Source of the DNA: Dictyostelium discoideum
Lineage: Eukaryota
Length of the DNA: 64,000 nt
Direction of reading: 5' to 3'
Assembly: GCA_000004695.1 (NCBI GenBank)
Contig: CM000154.2
Location: forward strand, 1,472,001-1,536,000
In this document: positions 1,461 through 43,700 of the stretch, piece by piece
How positions within the stretch are numbered: position 1 is the first letter of the stretch
Layout: every line of letters starts with the position of its first letter
Notes under the pieces: model-generated
The model's input: only the letters and a program-made list of their open reading frames with translations
The model's database searches: none
Told to the model about the DNA's origin: nothing
Translations under genes and position numbers: made by a program

Positions 1461-1519
1461 GTTGGCCTTACAGCAAATTCTCACAAATTTTTACTGATTA
1501 AAAAAAACCCCTTGTCAAC
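1461..1519 (+). ncRNA. Candidate Class I RNA (Dictyostelium-specific small ncRNA)
   Basis: GTTGG is followed directly by CCTTACAGCAA, the 11-nt Class I motif, at 1466-1476. About 40 nt downstream is an A-rich ...ACCCC block, and UCAAC at 1515-1519 can pair with the 5' GUUGG as a 5-bp terminal stem with one G-U wobble. The total length is about 59 nt. A T-run follows. Confidence 0.5.
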
Positions 1520-2053
1520 TGTCCACTTTTATTTTTTTTTTGTTTGTTGTCCTGAAACGGGGATAATTTTTTGTGAATGACAAATTATCCACTATTTAAT
1601 GTATCAGTGAAAAAAATTTAAAACAAGATCCAAGCAATTTTAAATTTCTAAACGATTTCTTTTGTAAAATTTACAGACTAAGAAAATTAACATGCAAAGC
1701 TTATTTTATTCTGGAATCTGTGCTTTCGAATATATTTACTTTGCCCAATTCATATAATTAACTACAATTTCAATATTAAATTTATCGATTTAATTCATTT
1801 AATTTAAAACATGGGTGTATTAAAAAAAAAAAAAAAAAAAAAAAATAATAATGCACTAAATTTTAAAATTCTTTATTTGCTAACTCAAACAAAAAAAAAA
1901 AAAAAAGAAAAACTACTTTACATTTTAAAATTAAAATTCATAAATAAAACTATTTCATTGTTTATTCCTTTAATGTATAAACACTGATTAATCAATATTA
2001 AAAAAAAAAAAAAAAAAAAAAAGTAAACCAACAAGTAAAAAAAAAAAGTACAA

Positions 2054-9823: not shown

Positions 9824-10203
9824 CTTTTTTCTTTTTTTTTTTATTTTTTATTTTTTTTATTTTTTTTCTTCTTATTTTGTTTCTTTTTATATCAGACAAA
9901 AAATCTATTTAGAGGATGAAACTCCTCAAGTTGAAAGATTTATTTTAAAATCCGATTAAAGGAATAAAAAATAAAAAAAAAAAAAAGTATATAAAAAGGA
10001 ATTCCATCAAATAATAAAAAAAAAATAAAATAAAAAAAAGATATTTTGATATTTTAATTTTTTATTTTATTTTATTTTATTTTATTTTATTTTATTTTAT
10101 TTTATTTTAAAATTTTTTTATATTACAATTTAAAATCGTATTTGATTATTCGGGTAAAAATAATTATTGTTTTAATTAATTGAAATGAGCACTTCTTGCC
10201 TTG

Positions 10204-10243
<40 letters not shown>

Positions 10244-10941
10244 AAAATGAAAATTATTTTTTTAAAAAATGAAATTAAAAAAAAAATTAAAAAAAAAAAA
10301 AAAGATATTTTTTGATTAAAGGGATTTTTATTATTTATTTTTATTTATTTTATTTTATTTTTTTTTTTTTATTTTCGTCTGAAAATATTTTTTGGTTGGG
10401 AAAACAAAAAAAAATAAAAAAATAAAAAAAACTAATTAATAGTTAATAGTTAACTATATTGGTGACGAATATAGATTTTTTTTTTAATTTTTAAAAAATA
10501 AAAAAATAAAAAATATTGAAAGTTGATGGTTTTTTTCTTTTTTCCCAAAATGTTTTAATTATTTTTAATTTTTTTTTTTTTTTTTTTTTTTTTGACACCT
10601 TACAATGTGTTTGTTAATATTTATTTTTTTTTTTTTTTTTTAAAAAAAAAAGATTTGACCAGTCAAAAAATTTTGTATTATCTTTTGGAATATCATAGGT
10701 TTTATCTTAAATTTTCGTTTAATCTTTATTAGCGTCATAAATTACTTATTATTAATAATATTGTCATCATTACAATAACATTTATTTATTTATTTTATTT
10801 TTTGGTTTTATAAATAATTTTTGATGGGTTGCACCACAATAAAAAAAAAAAAAAAAAAAAACCATCCCAAGATCTTTAATTTTCGAATGTACACTTTGTT
10901 TTATTTTATTTCGTTTATTTTTTATATTCTCTCTAAAGATA

Positions 10942-12969
<2,028 letters not shown>

Positions 12970-14051
12970 TTAAATTCAAAAAGTAAAAAATAATGTGAAA
13001 AAAAAAATAAAAAAAAAAAAAAAAAAAAATAAAAAAAAATCTTTTTTTTAAATTTTTTTTTATTTTTTTTAATTTTTTTTTAATTAATAAATTTTTATTT
13101 TCTTATTTTTAATTTCCTTAAATGGAAATATTAAAAAATTATCAATGAAATATTTGGAAATACTTTTAACCTTCAAAAAATTCCAATGTAAATAAAGTCT
13201 TAAAATTTCAATCAAAAAAGAAATTAATTTTGTTTTTATTAAATTTCTTATTAAACAAAAATAATTAAAAAAAAAAAAGAGTTTAGAAAAAGATAAAAAT
13301 TAATTCCTATTATATCAAAATGAATTGAAATTTTAAATAAAATTCCAATATATATGATTGTTTTGGATGAAGTAATTTTTTAAAAATAGAATTTATTGAA
13401 AAAAAAAAAAAAAAAAAAAGTTTAAACCAAGAAATAATTTATAATTTCAAAATAAAAGCACTAAACCAATAAAAAAATTAATTTTTAATAATAAATAATA
13501 TTAATATTCTTATCCATTTCATAAAAAAACATCATAATTTTTTTTTTTTTTATAACACTAATAAAATATAAAAAATTAATATTATTTATTCATTTGTTTT
13601 AAAAAATATTAAAAACCACACCAACATCGAATTTTTTTTTTTTTTTTTTAAAAAAATGTACAAAATTGGAAAATCTCCCACACACACCCACACAAACCAT
13701 TAAAAGTGAAAAACATAATTCTTGATAAATTAGTGCCATAGAAAAAACTTAAACAAATAAATACATACACAAATTCAACTAGTATCATACTTAGGCAAAG
13801 GAATTTTTTTATTTTTTAAAATTTTTTTAATTTTAATTTTTATTTTTATTTTATATAACCCACACGTATTAGTTTTCTAAACCATTGTTTTCTATTTTTT
13901 TTTATATTTTTTTTTTTTATTTTTTTTTTTTTTTTTTTTTTATATTTTTTAATTTTTTAAAACTCTTTTAATTTATTTATTGTATAAAAAAAATTTTATT
14001 TTGTAATAAGTCAACAAATATCAATAATTTAATAAAAAATCTTTAGATCTT

Positions 14052-14098
<47 letters not shown>

Positions 14099-14101
<3 letters not shown>

Positions 14102-14735
14102 TTTGGAAAATTAAAAAAAAGTCAATCCAGTAAAACATTAGGAACCTTAAATTATCAAACCTATGATAATAATTATAAAGATACCAATTATTTAACATCA
14201 AGATGTTTTTTAACACCATCATTAGTTTTAATAAGTGGTGATAATCAATGTATGAATCAATATTCAAATGAAAAAGTTGTAGTAAAAATTACAAATACAT
14301 ATGTGGAAATTATGGAAAAAACAAATTTAGTAAGTTTTTTTTAAAATGAAAAAAAAAAAAAAAAAAAAAAACCAAATTAATTATTTTTTATTTTATTAAT
14401 TTTAAATAATTAATTTTTGATTAATAAAGGTTGTTATAAAAACTTTTTTATTAAGAGATGTTAAAGAATTTATTTTTAATGGTCAATTTTGGGAAATTAT
14501 ATGTAGAAATTCTCAAGGAGAATTTGTAACATATAGTTTCAATGTTTCAAAAGCACATATTTTACAATCAAAAGTAATGGAATTTCTTAAACAAGTACAA
14601 AAAGTAAATATTTTTATAAAAAAAATTAAAAAATCATTAAATATTTTAACTAATTCAATTTTTGTTTAATTATTTATTCAAATATTTTAGGAGGAAGACC
14701 ATAATAGTGAATTCATCCCAAAAATTGTTTATTAA
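14099..14735 (+). CDS. Hypothetical protein of about 149 aa in three exons
   Basis: The exons are 14099..14329, 14430..14603 and 14691..14735. The donors are GTAAGT at 14330 and GTAAAT at 14604. The acceptors are AG at 14428-29 and 14689-90. All junctions are phase 0. The product is MFGKLKKSQSSKTLG...VEIMEKTNL / VVIKTFLLRDVKEFIFNGQFWEIICRNSQGEF... / EEDHNSEFIPKIVY. I recognise no domain. Confidence 0.4.
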
Positions 14736-14831
14736 TTTAAAAAATATTATATATATATATAAACCAAAAAAAATAAAATGTAATCCCCTTTTGTACAATA
14801 GAAATTATTAAATTATAAATATTGTTTAAAT

Positions 14832-14869
<38 letters not shown>

Positions 14870-14879
14870 ATTTTAATTT

Positions 14880-15969
<1,090 letters not shown>

Positions 15970-15994
15970 TCTCTGTATTTATATATATATTTAG

Positions 15995-15995
<1 letters not shown>

Positions 15996-16029
<34 letters not shown>

Positions 16030-16044
16030 GTGTGTTGTGTGTGA
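15996..16044. repeat. (GT)n/(CA)n dinucleotide repeat immediately upstream of the U1A start codon
   Basis: tgtgtgtgtgtgtgtgtgtgtgtgtgttgtgtgttgtgtgtg. It is CA-rich on the coding strand, 30-80 nt upstream of the ATG at 15969. Confidence 0.8.
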
Positions 16045-16573
16045 ATGGAAAGTTTTGAGTTTATTTTGATGTTTTATTTAGATCTGTATTTAATACAACC
16101 AATAAATTTATACTGGAAGGGATATTTTTTTAAAAAAAAAAAAAAAAAGAAAAAAAAAAATGTTGGTTTTAATCGATAGAAATGAAAATGAATAAAAAAA
16201 AAAAAAAATAAAAAAAAAAAAAAAATGTTTTCTAATTTTGAAAATTTTTGAAAAATGAATTTTTTTCATCAATTGACAAATTATTTGTGGGGGTTGGAGT
16301 AAAAATAATAATAAAATAAAATAGAGAATAGTAATAAATAAAATAGGAAAAGAGATTAAAAATGGATTTCATATAACACTATTTAATTAATTTAAAAGAA
16401 AAAAAAAAAGTGTGTAAAAAAAAAAAAATAAAATAAAAAAAAAGCTTTTTTAATAGAGGGTTAAAAAACAACTAGAAATTTAAAAAAAAAAAAAAAAACT
16501 CATTCTATTTATAATCATTATTAATTATTGTCAGAGTTAATTATAATTTTTAAATAATTATAAATTTATTAAA

Positions 16574-16616
<43 letters not shown>

Positions 16617-16762
16617 CCCATGGTTTTTTTAATAAAAAACATAAATAAAAATATAATAAAATTATAATTATTATTAATTAATTTTTTCCAAGAAATAAAA
16701 AATAAAGTTAAAAATAGGTTTGTTATTTAATTTATTTAATTTTTTCATTTTATTTTATTTCA

Positions 16763-16808
<46 letters not shown>

Positions 16809-16950
16809 GATCAAAAATTTTTTTTTTTTTTTTTAATTTTTGTTTTTAAAATATCTTTTTTTTTTTTTTCACCATTATACTTATTTATTTTTTATAATTT
16901 ATATATATGAAATAAAAAAAAAATAAAAAAAAAAATAAAGAAAAATAAAA

Positions 16951-17589
16951 ATGGAAGTAATGGAAATTGATAAAAAAATAAATAAATGTGAAGAATTATT
17001 TTGGAAAGTTATAAGAAATAAATATTTATTTAATTATATATTTCAAGTATTGGAAACAATGCCAATTGAATTCGATTCAGTTAGTAAATATTATATTGGT
17101 AATAGAATTAAATTTAAGAATATAAAGAATTTAGATTGGATGGTTAAACATGGTCAATGGGAAATATTAAGAGATAAATTAATTTCCAGTCAATATATTT
17201 GCATTAATCTTGAAATGATATCACCTTTTCTAATGAAATGTAAAGATGAATCAATATTAGAACTAATGTTTGAAAAAAAGATAACGGAATTAAGACAAAT
17301 CAATATAATTGATTCTTGTGTGTCTAGTGCAAATGAAATATCAATAAATTTCTTTTTATCAAAACTTGAAAATAATCCACACCTTTTGAAAACATCTTTA
17401 CCAATTTATCAATCAACCATTAGAAATTCAATCACAAATTCAACACCTAAAGTATTTGAAAATCTTATAAAAACTCAACCAATTTTAGATGAATCTTTAA
17501 AAGAAAATTGTATTCAATATGCTTTATTAAATAAAAATCATAAAGTTGAAATGATTAAATCTGTTAAAAAATATTTGGAAATTATTTAA
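16951..17589 (+). CDS. Hypothetical protein, 212 aa, single exon
   Basis: The ORF has ordinary amino-acid composition, MEVMEIDKKINKCEELFWKVIRNKYLFNYIFQVLETMP... I recognise no domain. It is flanked by typical A/T-run intergenic DNA. Confidence 0.4.
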   Translation: MEVMEIDKKINKCEELFWKVIRNKYLFNYIFQVLETMPIEFDSVSKYYIGNRIKFKNIKNLDWMVKHGQWEILRDKLISSQYICINLEMISPFLMKCKDESILELMFEKKITELRQINIIDSCVSSANEISINFFLSKLENNPHLLKTSLPIYQSTIRNSITNSTPKVFENLIKTQPILDESLKENCIQYALLNKNHKVEMIKSVKKYLEII

Positions 17590-17691
17590 AAAAATTTAAA
17601 AAAAAAAAAAAAAAAAATTTAAAAAAAAAAAAATAAAATTTAAAAAATAAAATTATTTTTATTATTATTGTTATTATAATTATTTATTTAT

Positions 17692-18102
17692 TTATTTTTG
17701 TGTTTCTTTACTATATGAATATTTAACTTGACAAATTCTAATTTCATAATGTTCATACCAATTTGTTATTCCAAATTTTTGTGCTATTTTATGATTTGAA
17801 TTATCTTTCCAATTTTTAATAGAATTCAAGGATTCCCAATATGAAACTGTGATACCAAATCTTGAATGATCATTTCTTGTAGATTCTATACCAAGATAAC
17901 CATCTTGTGATTTTGCTAATTCATCCATTTCATCTTTATTTTAAAATGTTAATAAACATTAAACCAATGGGTTGGGATATTTTAATATTTTAAAGAAATA
18001 TGTACCTGCCATTTTATTATATTCTTCATTATATTCTGATGTTCTTATACTTGAAAATATACAAGCATAATAATCTTTTTTTGGTGTTTTCGCAAATACC
18101 AT
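17692..18102 (-). CDS. Antibiotic-biosynthesis-monooxygenase (ABM) / dimeric alpha-beta-barrel family small protein in two exons
   Basis: The exons are 18102..18006 and 17933..17692. The donor is GTACAT, phase 1. The acceptor is AG at 17935-34. The product is MVFAKTPKKDYYACIFSSIRTSEYNEEYNKMA-D-EMDELAKSQDGYLGIESTRNDHSRFGITVSYWESLNSIKNWKDNSNHKIAQKFGITNWYEHYEIRICQV, which carries the ABM hallmark ...SYWES.EA..AW..S..H..A...G..WY..Y.IR... Confidence 0.6.
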
Positions 18103-18103
18103 C

Positions 18104-18134
<31 letters not shown>

Positions 18135-18396
18135 TTAAAAATGAAAAAAAAAATAAAAAATTATTTTTGTGGAAAAAAAAAAAAAAAAAAACAAAAAAAA
18201 AAAGTAATATAATAATTTAATTTGTGAAGATTTTTTTATTTACAATTTTGTGTTTAGATTAATTTATATATAGGGTTGTTTTTTTTTATTTTTTTTTTAT
18301 TTTTTTTATTTTTTTATTTTTTTTTTTTTTTATTTAATTGAAATTAAAAACTTTGGAAAAGAGAAATATACAATTTGAAATTCAATTTGAATTTAT

Positions 18397-18660
18397 TCAT
18401 CCAAGTAAATAATGTTCATCAACTTCTGGGTCAAATTCTCTAGAGTTATCAATATGTGGCCAAACTAAACCTTCAACTGGCTTTTGAACTAAATTGTCAT
18501 CAAGATTTCTATCAACTCTTTTAACTGGTCGTGGATCAAACTCATCGTCAAGTTCTTTATCAACCTTGAATCTAACAGATTTTGGCTTTAATGCATCCTT
18601 GGCTGCTTTAAAATTAGCAGAATCCATAACCTCTTCATCTACATTTGAATGTGTGTTTCC

Positions 18661-18663
<3 letters not shown>
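18397..18663 (-). CDS. Small acidic protein of 88 aa with an N-terminal MGxxxS N-myristoylation motif. It is paralog 1 of a tandem pair.
   Basis: The sequence is MGNTHSNVDEEVMDSANFKAAKDALKPKS...GLVWPHIDNSREFDPEVDEHYLLG. It shares its N-terminus, the GLVWPH motif and the DEHYLLG C-terminus with the ORF at 19224..19445. The 3' flanks are also similar (…aaaactttggaaaagag). Confidence 0.5.
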
Positions 18664-18692
<29 letters not shown>

Positions 18693-19223
18693 TTTTTTTT
18701 TTTTTTTTTAAAAAGTAAATATTTGTTTTTTTTTTTTAAATAAATATTATTATTTTTTAAAAATTAAGGTTTGTATTTTTAAAGTTTTGTTAAAATTATA
18801 AAAATCTATTTAAATTAAAAAAAAAAAAAAAAAAAAAAAATATTTTAATTTAAAATAAAAAAAAAAAAAAAATAATAAAAAAAAAAAAAAAATTAAAATA
18901 AAATTAAAAAAACCTTTTTTTTCCCTTATTTAAATAAAACCTTGGTATCTATTAAAAATTTTTCAATTTTAAATTTCCAATTTCCAATTTCCAAAAGGTG
19001 GAATTGAATTAAGATTAAAAAAAAAAAAATAAAAAAAAATTAAATTTGGGTTGCAATTCTATATATTTTGAAATATATTAATTTTTTATTTACAAATGTG
19101 TATAGATATTTTTAATTTTTATTTTTATTTTTATTTTTTTTTATTTTTATTTTTATTTTTGTTTGAATTGAAACTAAAACTTTGGAAAAGAGTTAAACCG
19201 CACAATTATTTGAATTTATTTAT

Positions 19224-20015: not shown

Positions 20016-21273
20016 TTAATCGAGAGATACTTGATCAGAAGTTGCACCATATAATGATCTTAATTTTTTTAAACTTTCGGATTCTTCTTTTGGTTGTTTT
20101 TCTGTTGTAGTAGTTGCAGTTGTAGTAGTTGTTGTTGTTTCTTTTTGAGTTGAATTATTTTTTGAATCCCTATCTCTACTATTACTTCTTGATCTACTTC
20201 TTTTTCTACCTCCATAGGTTCTACCGTCTTCTGAATCATCATCATCGTCACTATAATAACTGTCTCTTTTATAACCATTACCATTACCACCACTACTACT
20301 ACTATAATCACGGTCTCTATCTCTATCATTACTACGACTTTTACTGTAGTCATCATAGTCATCTCTTTTGCTATAATTTCTACCACCACTACCACTGCTT
20401 TTATTTCTTTCATTTTTAAAACGTTCTAATTCTTCAGCATAAGAATCTTTTCCATTATCATCATTATTGTATCTACTATTATTTCTATAACTATCTCTAT
20501 AGTTATCTCTGTAGCTATCTCTATTATCTCTATCTCTATCTCTACTATATGAATCTCTATCTCTGTAACTATCCCTGTGGTTATCTCTACTATCCCTACT
20601 ATCTCTACTATCCCTACTATACCTGTAGTTATCTCTACTATCTCTACTATCTCTACTATCCCTACTATCTCTATTATCCCTATTATCTCTATTATCTCTA
20701 CTATATGAATCTTTTTTTGTATTATTATTATTATTATTATAAGTTAAATTATTTTCTATTTCATAATCTTTAATTTTCTTATCTAAATCTTGTTGAATTT
20801 TAGTTGGTATTCTTGGGAGTACAGTTCCAGAGAATTTATTATCTTTTAAAAGGTCCAATAGAAATCTTTGAATTGTAACTTCAGTATTTTTTGAAATGAA
20901 TACTGTTTCTTGATCATCCAAATAATCGACATACCAATCCCAAAGATTTGCTGGTGGATGACAATAACGAAGATACAATGCACCAATGGCTCTAATATAT
21001 GGTGATTCATTATTACCCAATAATCCTTTCATTTGCTTCACTGTTAATTTCATTAAAAAGAATTTATACAATAAACAAAAAGTAGTTGATGGTGTTTTTG
21101 TATTTGGTATATATGGTGCTAAAATCTCTACATTTCTTTTAATTTCTTCAATTACTTCATGATATGATCTCTTTGGACTAATTTAATTTTTTTTTTGAAA
21201 AAAAAAAAAAAAAAAATAAAAAAAATAAAAAATAAAAAAAATAAAAAGAAATGTTAATATAATTTATTTGTTT

Positions 21274-22027: not shown

Positions 22028-22190
22028 ATGGATCCAGAATCAGTTGGATATTGTAATAATCCCGACTTTCTTCATAAGGGGTCAATGGATGAATTATACA
22101 ATATATCAAAATTAACAGATGATATTAAACCAGTTGAAGTAATTATTTTTATTATATTATTATTATTATCAATTAAAATTTTAATATTAA

Positions 22191-22228
<38 letters not shown>

Positions 22229-25200
22229 TCAAATATTATAGGAAAAATGGAAATTAGTACCAGCATTTATGAAATGTAGAGGTTTAGTAAAACAACATAT
22301 AGATTCATTTAATTTTTTTATAAATGTTGAAATGAAAAAGATTGTTAAAGCAAATGAAAGACTTACAGCAGAAAATGATCCTTCATATTTTGTAAGGTTT
22401 GTATCCTAAAATATATTAATATATATATATATATATTAATCATAATTATGCTCGCGTAGGTATGAAAATAAATATTAATTAATTATTATTTATATGTATG
22501 TATGTATGTATGTATGTATATAGATTCACAGATATTAATGTTGGATCACCAACATCAACAGAGGATAATTTAGATTCAGTTCAATTAACACCACAAAGAT
22601 GTAGACTTAGAGATATGACATATTCAGCACCAATCTTTGTTAATATAGAGTATACACGTAATAAACAAATCATATCAAAGAGAGATGTACATATTGGTAA
22701 TATACCAATTATGTTACGTAGTAGTAATTGTGTTTTATCAAAGAAAACACCAGAACAAATGGCGGCATTGGGTGAATGTCCAATGGATCCAGGTGGTTAT
22801 TTCATAGTTAGAGGACAAGAGAAGGTTATTTTAAATCATGAACAGTTATCAAAGAATCGTATTATCATTGAGATGGATTCAAAGGGATTGCCATCGGCAT
22901 CGGTAACTTCATCAACACACGAACGTAAATCAAGAACTGGTGTAACACTAAAGAATGAGAAACTCTACTTAAAGCATAACACCTTTGGTGAAGATATACC
23001 AGTGGCAATTGTGTTGAAAGGTATGGGTGTTGAAACCGATCAAGAGATGGCACAGTTGGTGGGGTCCGATGATGTTTTCCTCAACGCAATCACTCCATCA
23101 TTGGAGGAGTGTCAAAAATGTGGTGTGCACACTGCCGCCCAAGCATTGGATTATTTGGGTAGTCGTATTAAAGTTTTCCGTAGACCTTATGGTGTGCAAA
23201 ATAAAAAGACAAAGTCAGAGGAGGCTCGTGATATTTTAGCGGGTGTGGTACTTAATCATGTGCCAGTACGTCGTTACAATTTCAGATTGAAGGTTATTTA
23301 TCTCTCTCTTATGATTCGTCGTATTATTATGGCATCAAAGGACAAGAGTTGCCTCGACGATAAAGATTACTATGGTAATAAAAGAATAGAGTTATCGGGT
23401 CAATTGATATCACTACTCTTTGAAGATTGTTTTAAAAAGTTTCAAAGTGAATTAAAGAAATCAGTGGATCAAGCAATTGCCAAAGCTAATCGTGCAGAGA
23501 ATTTAGATTTACCCAAATTAATTCGTACCGATACAATCACCAATGGGTTCACACATGCGATCTCTAGTGGTCAATGGAATTTAAAACGTTTTAGAATGGA
23601 ACGTTCTGGTGTATCACAAGTTTTATCACGTCTTTCCTATATCTCTTGTATGGGTATGATGACACGTATTCAATCACAATTTGAGAAAACTCGTAAAGTG
23701 GCTGGTCCACGTTCACTTCAACCATCACAATGGGGTATGTTATGTCCATCCGATACACCTGAAGGTGAGGCTTGTCTACATCCTGACACAATAATCACAA
23801 TGTCCAATGGTCAACAAAAACCAATACGTCAATTAAAAGATGGTGATTCAATCATCACTCTAGATCCAATCACTATGGAAGCACATTCAACTCGTATCTA
23901 TTCACATTTCATTAAATCCTCTTCACAATATGGTAAACAATTATTAAAAATAACTACAATCACTGGTAAAGAAATCATTTGTACAAATGATCATAGATTC
24001 TTAACTTCAAATGGTAATTGGAAACAATCAAAAGATTTATTATTAAATGATAAATTATTTTTAATTTCTTCATCAAATCAATTAGAATTTAATAATAATA
24101 ATAATGAAAATAATAATGAGAATAATAATGATATAATTGAAATTTTAAATGAAAATCAATTAATTAATCAAGGAGTAGTACCAATTAAGATTATTCAAGA
24201 ATTAAAATCAATTGAATTATTACCTTTATTAAATAATAATGAAAAGTTAATTACAATTTCAAGAATTATAGGTTCAATTGATAAAATTGGTTCAAATAAA
24301 CAAAATGAACCAATCATTCAATATCAATTTAATTTAATTTCAGATTTTGATCAATTTTTAAAAGATTTACAATATTTAGGTTTTATAAATCCAATTTATA
24401 AATTAAATGAAGAACAACAACAACAACAACAACAAAAAATAGATCATCAACAACAACAACAACAACAAGTAGAACAACAACAAAAATCAATTATTATAGA
24501 TTTTATTGGTAGTTCATTTGGATATTTTATTCAATCACTTTTAAATGAAAAAAATTGGATTGAAAAATCAAATAATCAATTTGTTAAAAAAGAATTTTTA
24601 TCAAGTTTTATTAGTAATGTAAATAGAATTCAATTTAATATTATTGAAGAAATTAATCAACAAAATAATGATTCAAATTTTAAAATTTTATTAAATTATA
24701 AACAACAAAAACAACAACAAAATGAAAAAGAAGAAAGAGCAGTAGTAGATCATGATAATGAAATATTTAATATTAAATCATTACAAATTTTATTAAATCA
24801 ATTTAATGTTATATCAAGTATTGATTTTGAAGAATCAAATTTAATTATAATTAATTCAAGTTTAAAAAAGTTTATTGATTTAATTAATATTAAATTTAAT
24901 CAAAAATTAAATAATCAAATTATACAAATTAGAGAATATTTAAATTATATAAATTATAATAATAATAATAATAATAATGAAGAAATTAATATAAAAAAGA
25001 AAGATTTTGGTTATTTTAAAAAATTAAAAATTAAAAGAAATAGTTTTGAAATTGAAATTGAAAAGATTGAACAATTAAATTATCAAGATTGTCCAGAGAT
25101 TTCAGATTTTACAACAGAATCAGATTATCATAGTATGATTAGTAATGGTTTCGTTAGTCATAACTGTGGTTTGGTAAAGAATTTTGCATTGATGAGTCAT

Positions 25201-27084
25201 GTAACCACTGATGATTCAGAAGGTCCTTTACTTAGATTAGCATACAATTTAGGTGTACAAGATATTCTATTGGTAACTGGTGAAGAGTTAAATTCAAGAA
25301 ATGCATATTTAGTATTATTAAATGGTCAGATCATTGGTATTCATAATTCACCCGATTATTTTGTAACTACTCTAAGAAAGATGAGAAGAGCTGGTAGAAT
25401 TAGAGAATTTGTTTCAATTTGTAAGAATAAGGCTCAACAAACTATTTCAGTTGCATGTGATGGTGGAAGATTGTGTAGACCTGTTATTATTGTAGATGAT
25501 CAACGTCCAAGATTAACTCAAGAACATATTGAAGATTTAAAAGATGGTCTTAGAACATTTGATGATTTCATTAGAGAAGGTATCATTGAATATTTGGATG
25601 TGAATGAAGAGAATGATAGTTTCTTGGCATGGAGAGAGGCAGCTATTCAACCATGGACAACCCATCTCGAGATTGAACCATTCACAATGTTGGGTTGTGT
25701 AGCTGGTTTAATTCCATATCCACATCATAATCAATCACCACGTAATACCTATCAATGTGCTATGGGTAAGCAAGCAATTGGTGCAATCGCTTACAATCAA
25801 TTGACTCGTATCGATACATTACTCTATCTATTGGTACATACTCAACGTCCATTATGTCAAACACGTACAATCGATCTATTGAATTGGTATAAATTACCAG
25901 CTGGTCATAATGCCACCGTGGCGGTAATGTCCTACTCTGGCTATGATATTGAAGATGCTTTGGTCATGAATAAAGCCTCATTGGATCGTGGTTTCGGTCG
26001 TTGTATCGTATTGAAAAAACAAGTTACCTCAATCAAAAAACATGGTAATGATACATCGGATCGTATTTTCCCACCAACTCCAAACGATTTGAGACAACCA
26101 AAATATGGTCTCTTGGATAGTGATGGTATCGCAAAACCAGGTGAACTCGCTCAAAAAGGTCAAATTTTAGTAAACAAATATTCACCATTGAATACCATCG
26201 ATGCAACACCAAATCCAGAACTCATACCAGACTCTGCCTATAAATCAAGTTATATGGGTTATAAATATGATAATCCTGCATTCATCGATAAGGTCCTTTT
26301 GACAAGTGGTGATGATGAACAATTACTCATTAAAATGTTAATGAGAAGTACTCGTCGTCCAGAGTTGGGTGATAAATTCTCTTCACGTCATGGTCAAAAA
26401 GGTGTTTGTGGTATCATTGTCAAACAAGAAGATATGCCATTCTCTGATCTAGGTATTTGTCCAGACATTATTATGAATCCTCATGGTTTCCCATCTCGTA
26501 TGACTATTGGTAAAATGATTGAATTGTTGGCTGGTAAAGCGGGTGTCTTGAGTGGTAAATTTGGTTTTGGTACTTGTTTTGGTGGTGATCGTGTTGAAAA
26601 TATCTCCAAAGTACTCATTAGCAAAGGTTTCAGTTATGGTGGTAAAGATTATGTTACCAGTGGTGTAACTGGTGAACCATTGGCATGTTTCATCTTTTTC
26701 GGACCAATCTTTTATCAAAAACTCAAGCATATGGTCATGGATAAAATGCATGCTCGTGCTCGTGGTCCAACAGTAACTCTAACAAGACAACCTACCGAAG
26801 GTAGAGCAAGAGGTGGTGGTCTTCGTTTAGGTGAGATGGAAAGAGATTGTCTCATTGGTTATGGTGCTTCAGCTCTCATCATGGAAAGATTAATGATCTC
26901 CTCTGATAGATTCACAGTTTATGCTTGTAAAAATTGTGGTTTCCTTGGTTATGAAGGTTATTGTCAATATTGTAAGAGTAGTGTCGATATCTCAACAATT
27001 CAAATACCATATGCTTGTAAATTATTATTCCAAGAATTACAAGCAATGAATATTGTACCACGTCTTAAACTAGTTGATTCTTAA
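22028..27084 (+). CDS. rpc2: DNA-directed RNA polymerase III second-largest subunit (RPC2/POLR3B) in three exons. It is interrupted by an in-frame intein.
   Basis: The exons are 22028..22138, 22242..22396 and 22524..27084. The introns run GTAATT...AG and GTTTGT...AG. Intron 2 contains (TATG)n. The N-terminus is MDPESVGY...KPVE / [39 protein letters not shown]... / FTDINVGSP...[20 protein letters not shown]. The C-terminus [59 protein letters not shown]...[11 protein letters not shown] is Pol III-specific (POLR3B-like), not RPB2 or RPA2. Confidence 0.9.
23773..25164 (+). other. Intein of 464 aa (a Hint domain with a degenerate LAGLIDADG-like core) inside the RPC2 coding sequence
   Basis: The extein junctions are ...[14 protein letters not shown] | [31 protein letters not shown]...TNDHRFLT...ISNGFVSHN | [10 protein letters not shown]. 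The first residue is Cys. TxxH is Hint block B. The C-terminus is HN, and the +1 residue is Cys. The element is in frame and is not bounded by GT/AG. Confidence 0.8.
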
Positions 27085-27231: not shown

Positions 27232-28540
27232 TTAATTTAATTTAAACCAAATATTAGTTTTTAATTCATAAGCTTTTTCATCACTTAAATCAGCAAAATT
27301 TAAATCATCAATAAATACACCACCATTAATATCTAATAATTGAAATTTTGTTTTTGTTTTATAACCAAAAGTGTTTAAGATCTTTTCAGATATTTCCATT
27401 TGAGTATCTGAATATTTAATTTTAACATTTTGATTTTTATCAAAGTAACTGAAAAATCCATGATAAATGATTGTTATGGTTTTATGAATTGGTATTGAAC
27501 CAACTAAAACATAATCACCTGAATTAAATGGTGATTTTACTCTTTGAGAATTGAAATCACCTTTTTTTTTTAACCATCCACCAACAATATTAAAATTTTT
27601 TCCAATTGTATTCATATCAATACCACTTTGAAATTCTAATGCTGGTTGAGTTTCAAAATCATTTGAAAATACTCTAACTTTAATATTATTATTATTATTA
27701 TTTTTATAATTATTTTTATCATTATTATTATTATTTGGATTTGGATTTGGATTTGATTCATCATAATTATTAAAATTATTTGAAATTGAATAATTTGAAA
27801 TTCCAAGGAATAATGCTGAATTAATTTGTTGTGGGGATAAAACTTTAAAATAGATATTATTTGGTAAATTATTTGGATCATTAATTAAAGTTTCAGGATC
27901 AATTAATGATTTTGAATTTAATGATGAATTATTATACATTTGAATATAGGGTGACAATTGTTCAACACCAAATGCAATTTTAATAAATGGTCTTAAATGA
28001 GTAAATCTCCAAACATTTTCAAATTTAATTTCTTCTTTAATTTCTGAATGACCACAATGTACCCAACAAAGAAATGTTTGTGGTACATTTTCAATTTCTG
28101 GTGGTGGTTGTGGTGGTGTTAAATTAACTGGTTTTTGATTATTTAATAATTGCATTTGTAATTGTTTAAATTGTTGGAGGTTGAAACTTTCTTCTTTTTG
28201 TTGTTGTTGTTGTTGTTGCTGTTGTTGTTGTTGGTGCTCATGGTGTTGAGGTTGTTGATGTCGATTCTTTGGGTGGTGGAAATGTTGTTGTTGTTTTTGC
28301 TCTTGTTGTTGCTGTTGATGATTTCGTGGTGAATCATCAAGATGATTTTGTTTTTGTTCTTGAGAGTATGATATTGAATCGGGGGTTTCATGATATTCTT
28401 CATGGTTATGATGTGAATTTGATGTTTTATCACCATCAACTTCTTTATTAATTGATTCATTTTTTGAATTATCTTCCTTACTACTATCATTATAATTATT
28501 ATTACTCTTTTTATTATCATCATTTTTATTTTTATTATTA

Positions 28541-28571
<31 letters not shown>

Positions 28572-28686
28572 CATTATTGTTACCTCCATCGCGATTGTTT
28601 ATTTCATTTTTATCATAACCATTATTTGTTTCAAAATTATTTTCATCATTACTATTATTTTTGGGACTGGTATTTGGGTCTGGCAT
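27232..28686 (-). CDS. Q/N-rich (prion-like composition) hypothetical protein of 484 aa with a structured C-terminal half
   Basis: The ORF is continuous. The N-terminus is poly-N and poly-Q. The C-terminal region FLCWVHCGHSEIKEEIKFENVWRFTHLRPFIKIAFGVEQLSPY...GDYVLVGSIPIHKTITIIYHGFF... has normal complexity. I recognise no domain. Confidence 0.45.
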
Positions 28687-43540: not shown

Positions 43541-43700
43541 CATATTAATTTCGGTAGGCATATTAATTTCAGCCTAAAATAGTTGGTCTGTGCATGCCAA
43601 AATTAATATGGCTGCTGAAATTAATATGGTAATTCTAGCAGACATAAGTCCCATGCCAAAACTATCATATTAATTTCAGCATCCATTATTAAAATTTTAT
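43541..43700. repeat. Cluster of a 14-nt palindromic motif, CATATTAATTTC(A/G)G and its reverse complement CTGAAATTAATATG
   Basis: ...ccatattaatttcggtaggcatattaatttcagcc...gccaaaattaatatggctgctgaaattaatatgg...tatcatattaatttcagc. There are five copies in 160 bp in alternating orientation. They lie next to the retroelement fragment. Confidence 0.5.

Follow-up and report, generated by a model that had tools for sequence, protein, structure and literature searches.

The RPC2 intein of Dictyostelium discoideum: a catalogued class-1 intein whose homing endonuclease is most likely inactive

The gene for RNA polymerase III subunit 2 (RPC2) of Dictyostelium discoideum is interrupted by an in-frame element of 1392 nucleotides, which was analyzed here within a 64,000-nucleotide stretch of contig CM000154.2 (assembly GCA_000004695.1, positions 1,472,001 to 1,536,000 of the forward strand; hereafter the window). 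The element occupies positions 23773-25164 (+) of the window and consists of 464 sense codons without a single stop codon. We hold it to be very probable that it is a class-1 intein, that its homing endonuclease is most likely inactive and that it has been inherited vertically among the dictyostelids. The element itself is not new. The 1608-amino-acid product that we reconstructed is identical to EAL63250.1 of D. discoideum AX4 (XP_636731.1, Q54IZ9), and it is in this protein that Goodwin, Butler and Poulter (2006; BMC Biol 4:38, PMC1635734) described an intein of 464 amino acids, which they named Ddi RPC2 (allele RPC2-a). These authors reported a Cys at its start, a His-Asn pair at its end with a Cys following, and a centre that is possibly a degenerate LAGLIDADG domain, with the Asn and Gln runs confined to the endonuclease segment. 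The same intein, sourced from InBase, is printed together with a T. lacteum orthologue in the supplement of Green, Novikova and Belfort (2018; Mob DNA 9:4, PMC5784728). The initial annotation, which was made from the DNA alone, had suspected that a listed intein was being rediscovered, and this suspicion was well founded. An experimental report on the Ddi RPC2 intein was not found in the literature searched.

The open reading frame that contains the insert (22498-27084, +; 1528 amino acids) matches the Pfam profiles Rpb2_1, 2, 3, 4, 5, 6 and 7, and its best matches in the PDB by phmmer are the human (7a6h_B) and yeast (5fj8_B) RPC2 structures. In the alignment to the human protein, residues 5-426 of the reading frame correspond to human residues 72-490 and residues 890-1525 to human residues 490-1128. 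Both aligned stretches thus meet at human Cys490, so that only the 464 residues inserted just before this cysteine separate them; relative to the yeast structure the insertion is equally clean. The interruption lies exactly between ...DTPEGEA and CGLVKN..., and the intein-less target across the insertion point reads ...GATACACCTGAAGGTGAGGCT|TGTGGTTTGGTAAAGAAT... (here and below, a bar marks a junction). The extent of the insert and its position at the PEG/CGLVKN motif, both proposed in the initial annotation, were hereby confirmed; the annotation had placed both junctions to the base. The size of around 1064 amino acids that had been proposed for the mature protein was wrong. Because residue 5 of the reading frame pairs with human residue 72, some N-terminal sequence was to be expected upstream, and two further exons were indeed found there, separated by GT..AG introns of 103 and 127 nucleotides. 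In the joined coding sequence the intein comprises residues 506-969 of the 1608-residue precursor, which leaves a mature protein of 1144 amino acids. The insertion had also been assigned to a catalytic-cleft motif of the polymerase. The cleft part of that claim stands, as Goodwin et al. locate the insertion point in the fork domain, at the surface of the cleft and close to the active site (PMC1635734), but the motif is not strictly a catalytic one.

To characterize the insert, it was aligned with four dictyostelid orthologues and 17 metagenomic relatives (alignment A1, 22 inteins). The invariant columns of this alignment are exactly the splicing residues, i.e. C1, T71, D73, H74, D445, T447, T448, H453, H463 and N464. 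Ddi RPC2 itself carries the full set of residues that defines class 1: Cys1, T71-N-D-H74 (within TNDHRFLT, intein residues 71-78), D445, H453, H463-N464 and the +1 Cys. The starting Cys, the TxxH of block B, the FVSHN end and the +1 Cys, on which the class-1 junction of the initial annotation was based, are therefore all present, with the splicing residues among them invariant over the 22 inteins. The Hint/intein profile search that had been suggested as a check gave a positive result as well: both NCBIfam intein_Nterm (TIGR01445; 31.7 bits, cut-off 24.5) and intein_Cterm (TIGR01443; 21.9 bits, cut-off 15.6) exceed their cut-offs. Pfam Intein_splicing (PF14890) is matched by all 22 members of the alignment at E<=0.01. 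In an index-free phmmer search of 1.84 billion representatives, the intein returned 658 matches at E<=1e-3, of which 139 at E<=1e-10.

An AlphaFold model made from the alignment reached a mean predicted local distance difference test (pLDDT) score of 77.7 and a predicted template modelling (pTM) score of 0.78, with pLDDT values of 83-96 in the splicing halves. The four segments of the model that score below 50 coincide with low-complexity runs. When the whole model was compared to the PDB with Foldseek, PI-PfuI (E=1.4e-9), the Tli and Pho VMA inteins, PI-TkoII and PI-SceI were recovered. In addition, the Ssp and Npu DnaB mini-inteins superpose on the predicted Hint part with a root-mean-square deviation of 1.6-1.7 A over around 100 columns.

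If the element splices by the standard class-1 route, Cys1 would undergo an N-S acyl shift, the +1 Cys would attack the Cys1 thioester to give a branched intermediate, Asn464 would cyclise with the help of His463 and thereby release the intein, and an S-N shift would join ...PEGEA to CGLVKN... to yield the RPC2 protein of 1144 residues. The element would no longer be able to home and would persist by vertical descent, since the gene is essential and could lose the insert only through a precise deletion that keeps the frame. Its inheritance would then date back to at least the common ancestor of the Dictyosteliaceae and Raperosteliaceae, and its centre would meanwhile have drifted to a non-coding composition and have gained Asn/Gln runs, which are predicted to form disordered loops.

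The state of the central domain was examined as well. The phmmer matches extend through the centre into inteins that bear a homing endonuclease, and the centre of the model shows repeated alpha-beta-beta-alpha-beta-beta-alpha elements that match I-AniI, I-Tsp061I, E-DreI and PI-PfuI in Foldseek. No LAGLIDADG family of Pfam was found in the D. discoideum intein at E<=1, a weak test given that only two of the 22 aligned sequences match LAGLIDADG_3. Motif 1 is two residues shorter than in the intact inteins at the same site and reads DK where those have DG. For the remnant of motif 2, the alignment to the consensus KREFLAGFQGGDG is gapless and places FISNVN opposite FQGGDG, and the column of the catalytic Asp holds a Val in D. 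discoideum, a Ser in P. violaceum and a Leu in T. lacteum. The pattern of two LAGLIDADG motifs, each with a catalytic acidic residue followed by a Gly, is thus lacking in the D. discoideum intein. Furthermore, a segment of around 60-70 residues, which in their relatives in the alignment connects the LAGLIDADG core to the C-terminal splicing strands, is missing from the dictyostelid inteins; in some of these relatives it matches helix-turn-helix families of Pfam. With the second catalytic Asp replaced, the first motif shortened and the helix-turn-helix-like segment missing, the endonuclease is most likely inactive. This agrees with the view of the initial annotation that a degenerate LAGLIDADG motif amid Asn/Gln runs reflects a decayed enzyme. 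The additional claim that the decay had left the domain undeleted applies to the LAGLIDADG core, which was kept, but not to the helix-turn-helix-like segment, which is gone.

Inteins at the same site were recovered from several other dictyostelids. A cluster at 90% identity contained those of D. cf. discoideum (456 amino acids), a second D. discoideum (458), D. firmibasis (449) and two D. citrinum genomes (438 and 427). In these five genomes the intein frame is uninterrupted over 427-458 codons despite many insertions and deletions, and where the species differ in length, they do so within or next to the Asn/Gln/Glu runs. P. violaceum (441 amino acids) and T. lacteum (399 amino acids) carry an intein at the same RPC2 site, which in the alignment is 43% and 38% identical to that of D. 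discoideum, respectively. This ranking, P. violaceum above T. lacteum, follows what we take to be the order of the species in the dictyostelid phylogeny. Among the dictyostelids examined, Heterostelium album, Acytostelium subglobosum and Synstelium polycarpum have no RPC2 intein and read an uninterrupted ...TPEGEACGLVKN... at the insertion site; among the other Amoebozoa examined it is absent from Balamuthia, Planoprotostelium, Physarum and Ceratiomyxa. D. purpureum, whose RPC2 was not among the matches, falls outside the survey, and the RPC2 of C. fasciculata is represented by a C-terminal fragment of 203 amino acids, with group 1 left unscored. The order Dictyosteliales has two families in the NCBI taxonomy, and carriers are found in each of them. 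From these sequences we infer one old gain of the intein, followed by vertical descent. As the loss in motif 2 is common to all three lineages, the endonuclease was probably impaired as early as the common ancestor of the Dictyosteliaceae and Raperosteliaceae. A separate observation concerns P0013, a JGI metagenome fragment of 684 amino acids that ends inside the intein and clusters at an identity of at least 90% with the RPC2 of P. violaceum (P0158); it seems to stem from a dictyostelid in the environment that carries the same intein.

To specify the selective regime, the ratio of non-synonymous to synonymous substitution rates (dN/dS, or omega) was calculated per region on orthologous DNA by the method of Nei and Gojobori. 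D. discoideum AX4, D. firmibasis and D. citrinum were compared with one another, which gives three species pairs. The ratio was 0.013-0.016 in the exteins, 0.04-0.05 in the N-terminal and 0.07-0.25 in the C-terminal splicing region, and 0.24-0.61 in the centre after masking of low-complexity and gap-adjacent columns, a procedure that favours conserved columns and biases omega downwards. Taken singly, the N-extein had a ratio of around 0.02 and the C-extein one of around 0.01. In an unmasked first pass, the centre had shown values of up to 0.93, and of 4.3 in one very close pair; these were treated as inflated by low-complexity alignment and a very low local dS, hence the masked rerun. Local dS was 0.11-0.20 in the centre versus 0.35-0.48 in the exteins, and the low value is probably due to AT saturation. 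The GC content is 15.6% in the centre of the intein, 36-37% in the exteins, 6.8% in intron 1 and 16.5% in intron 2, and at third codon positions (GC3) it is 0.02 in the masked codons of the centre and 0.24 in the exteins. By the measure of these substitution rates, the splicing function would clearly be maintained by purifying selection, whereas the centre is strongly relaxed. As an observation in its own right, the centre (24073-25029) is a coding sequence that has drifted to a non-coding base composition and yet has kept its frame open.

Several points weigh against the interpretation of the element as a splicing intein with a dead and neutrally drifting endonuclease. The Pfam Intein_splicing profile is matched by Ddi RPC2 over residues 8-464 with E=3.5e-8, but the score of 33.8 bits is just below the gathering score of 35.8. 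Motif 1 can be aligned in more than one way: when a gap of two residues is allowed, Asp170 meets the column of the catalytic Asp, and one acidic residue of this motif may thus survive. The alignment that was used for the structural model holds intact relatives and may have pulled the central domain towards their fold. The masked centre has an omega below 1 (Fisher test of synonymous versus non-synonymous changes, p = 0.17, 0.001 and 0.003 for the three pairs), and though strongly relaxed it is not demonstrably neutral. Finally, we infer protein splicing as such from sequence, predicted structure and selection.

The selection data bear on the idea that the centre is retained for a function, whether in the folding or splicing of the precursor, in the binding or nicking of DNA, or in some role for the host. 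If true, this would imply that the kept centre acts in precursor folding, in the control of splicing or in a co-opted function. The blocks outside the low-complexity runs show an omega that is significantly below 1 in two of the three species pairs, the domain has not been deleted since the ancestor of the Dictyosteliaceae and Raperosteliaceae although mini-inteins of 135-172 amino acids exist at the same site, and the model predicts a folded LAGLIDADG core in which the low-complexity runs are limited to segments of low confidence. Nevertheless, the Asp of motif 2 was lost in all three dictyostelid lineages, the helix-turn-helix-like segment is absent, and the low GC content and GC3 of the centre point to a constraint that was relaxed long ago. 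The masking bias and the AT-saturated dS moreover distort omega, and selection against misfolding or against stop codons in an essential precursor would suffice to keep it below 1. We therefore consider a retained function unlikely, albeit the most serious of the competing explanations together with the following one.

A related proposal is suggested by the wider family of same-site inteins. Junctions were parsed in the best 150 of the 658 phmmer matches. Nearly all of these 150 belong to the Rpb2 family and carry between one and three inteins, which occupy a small number of sites. Within this set, 32 of the 119 parsable inteins reside at the PEGxx|CG(L/I)VKN site that is used in D. discoideum; most of these are endonuclease-bearing and 443-534 amino acids long, and ten are the mini-inteins referred to above. 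Their hosts are mostly metagenome sequences. The contig of P0009 carries dense, intronless genes, including those for Rpb5, RNase III, a PBCV_P4-like protein and HSP70, and looks like that of a giant virus, this being the single informative contig; that of P0021 has too few annotated genes to judge whether it is viral. The literature already reports that intein-bearing RNA polymerase subunits are common to eukaryotes and Nucleocytoviricota, and a viral source of the dictyostelid intein is possible. The combined proposal would be that the dead domain is kept folded under weak selection and, separately, that the intein came from a giant-virus Rpb2 gene by cross-paralogue homing into RPC2. The origin part is prompted by the many same-site inteins in divergent Rpb2-type genes, one of which is on the virus-like contig; we grant the proposal as a whole the same small chance as a retained function.

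A giant-virus-like contig that came up in this context (JAWVHC010000653.1 of GCA_040384225.1, region 10001-19205) contains an Rpb2-type reading frame of 1939 amino acids with three inteins. Two more reading frames downstream of it have Rpb2_6/Rpb2_7 domains and a faint match to LAGLIDADG_3, an arrangement that points either to yet another element dividing the gene or to an error in gene calling.

That the element is a relic, which no longer splices and forms a permanent insertion in mature RPC2, seems very improbable to us. The endonuclease part is clearly decaying, and splicing itself would have to be deduced. However, C1, T71, H74, D445, H453, H463, N464 and the +1 Cys are kept in all dictyostelid copies and are invariant across the 22 relatives, and omega is 0.04-0.10 in the splicing halves while the centre is relaxed. 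In addition, with the fork domain on the cleft surface (PMC1635734), an insert of 464 residues was judged hard to accommodate in an RPC2 orthologue. A spliceosomal intron with an incidental open frame, which only the intron-like GC content of the centre would favour, was rejected and has next to no chance of being the correct explanation: the boundaries are GCT|TGT and AAC|TGT rather than GT..AG, the insert is in frame with a length that is a multiple of three and has no stops against 31-90 in the other five frames (at 19% GC, with around one stop per ten codons, a random open frame of 464 codons has a probability of ~6e-23), the frame is open in the five other Dictyostelium genomes, and Hint/intein profiles and folds are matched while the ends are under purifying selection at the amino acid level.

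The coordinates of the intein parts, of the rebuilt RPC2 gene and of the other features of the window are collected in Table 1. The two reading frames that flank RPC2 both lie on the opposite strand. Genes of similar size are found at these positions, likewise on the opposite strand, in the other Dictyostelium genomes (compared by size), which suggests conserved synteny. Outside this region, Rfam searches recovered a Dicty_Class_I_RNA, a member of a known family of small non-coding RNAs of Dictyostelium, at 48.8 bits (gathering score 41.5). They also recovered a match to mir-7131, with 85.5 bits on the forward and 83.4 bits on the reverse strand; because the matched sequence is a near-palindromic hairpin, the transcribed strand cannot be told from the match.

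Table 1. Features of the RPC2 intein, its host gene and the surrounding window (window positions; aa, amino acid positions within the intein unless given as a length).
Feature	Position	Strand	Remarks
RPC2 exon 1 (Met1 ... PVE)	22028-22138	+	rebuilt gene model; GT donor at 22139; joined coding sequence identical to EAL63250.1
RPC2 exon 2	22242-22396	+	between AG acceptor and GT donor
RPC2 exon 3, N-extein part	22524-23772	+	aligns to human RPC2 72-489; 37% GC
Intein N-terminal splicing region, aa 1-100	23773-24072	+	block A Cys1 at 23773-23775; block B TNDH at 23983-23994 (T71, H74); intein_Nterm above cut-off
Central degenerate LAGLIDADG-type endonuclease domain, aa 101-419	24073-25029	+	phmmer, predicted structure
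LAGLIDADG motif 1 remnant, aa 159-174	24247-24294	+	aligns to consensus LPILARIxGfxlxDGs of intact same-site inteins
LAGLIDADG motif 2 remnant, aa 272-286	24586-24630	+	gapless alignment to consensus (see text)
Asn/Gln/Glu low-complexity runs	24091-24129, 24415-24483, 24700-24735, 24958-24978	+	interrupt the central domain
Intein C-terminal splicing region, aa 420-464	25030-25164	+	block F-type block at 25099-25149; block G FVSHN at 25150-25164; intein_Cterm above cut-off
RPC2 C-extein, +1 Cys to stop codon	25165-27084	+	+1 Cys TGT at 25165-25167; aligns to human RPC2 490-1128
Arg-Asp/Arg-Ser repeat-rich reading frame	20016-21071	-	upstream of RPC2
Asn/Gln-rich reading frame, 484 aa long	27232-28686	-	downstream of RPC2
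Dicty_Class_I_RNA (RF01414)	1461-1521	+	Rfam
mir-7131 (RF03716)	43603-43692	+ and -	Rfam

As both the literature and InBase have included Ddi RPC2 since 2006, and a list of 2018 gives it again, the main finding by itself adds little. What the analysis contributes is a dated example, in an essential nuclear gene, of the stage in the homing cycle at which an intein is fixed and its endonuclease dead, but the element not yet lost, together with a quantification of the selection on the splicing part versus the endonuclease part. It also makes clear that, in environmental genomes, inteins frequently occupy the PEGxx|CGLVKN site of Rpb2-family subunits, a result relevant to the question whether viruses carry inteins into protists.

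Compared to known systems, the element is the same object as Ddi RPC2 of InBase and Goodwin et al. (2006): the two agree in the sequence of the host protein, the site, the length of 464 amino acids, the splicing residues, the degenerate state of the LAGLIDADG centre and the presence of Asn/Gln runs, and nothing differs, such that the present analysis adds the orthologues, the selection measures, the motif-level description of the decay and the same-site relatives. The T. lacteum RPC2 intein (supplement of Green et al. 2018) resides at the same site (TPEGEA|C...HN|CGLVKN) and has degenerate LAGLIDADG motifs as well, but it is shorter and has none of the long Asn/Gln runs seen in D. discoideum. 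The metagenomic Rpb2-type inteins (e.g. P0009-P0012, P0021, P0022 and P0026) interrupt their hosts at the same point (..ETPEGxx|C ... HN|CG(L/I)VKN..) and have the splicing blocks of both termini as well as the LAGLIDADG scaffold in common with Ddi RPC2, at 22-27% identity over the whole intein in the alignment and up to 42% in local phmmer matches (P0010, query residues 1-214). They differ in having canonical ..ADGS.. and ..GGDG.. motifs and the extra helix-turn-helix-like segment, in that some are mini-inteins, and in their divergent Rpb2-type hosts. PI-SceI (VMA1), PI-PfuI and the Tli and Pho VMA inteins, the best Foldseek matches, have the same architecture of a Hint domain split by a LAGLIDADG domain, but these enzymes are active or have intact motifs, their identity to Ddi RPC2 is 8-11%, and their hosts and sites are others. 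Finally, Bde RPB2-c, in the RPB2 of Batrachochytrium, also lies in the fork domain and was nearest to Ddi RPC2 on the 2006 tree, with around 20% identity and weak support (PMC1635734); its site is ten alignment positions further upstream (position 843 of the 2006 alignment, against 853 for Ddi RPC2), and its host is the Pol II paralogue.

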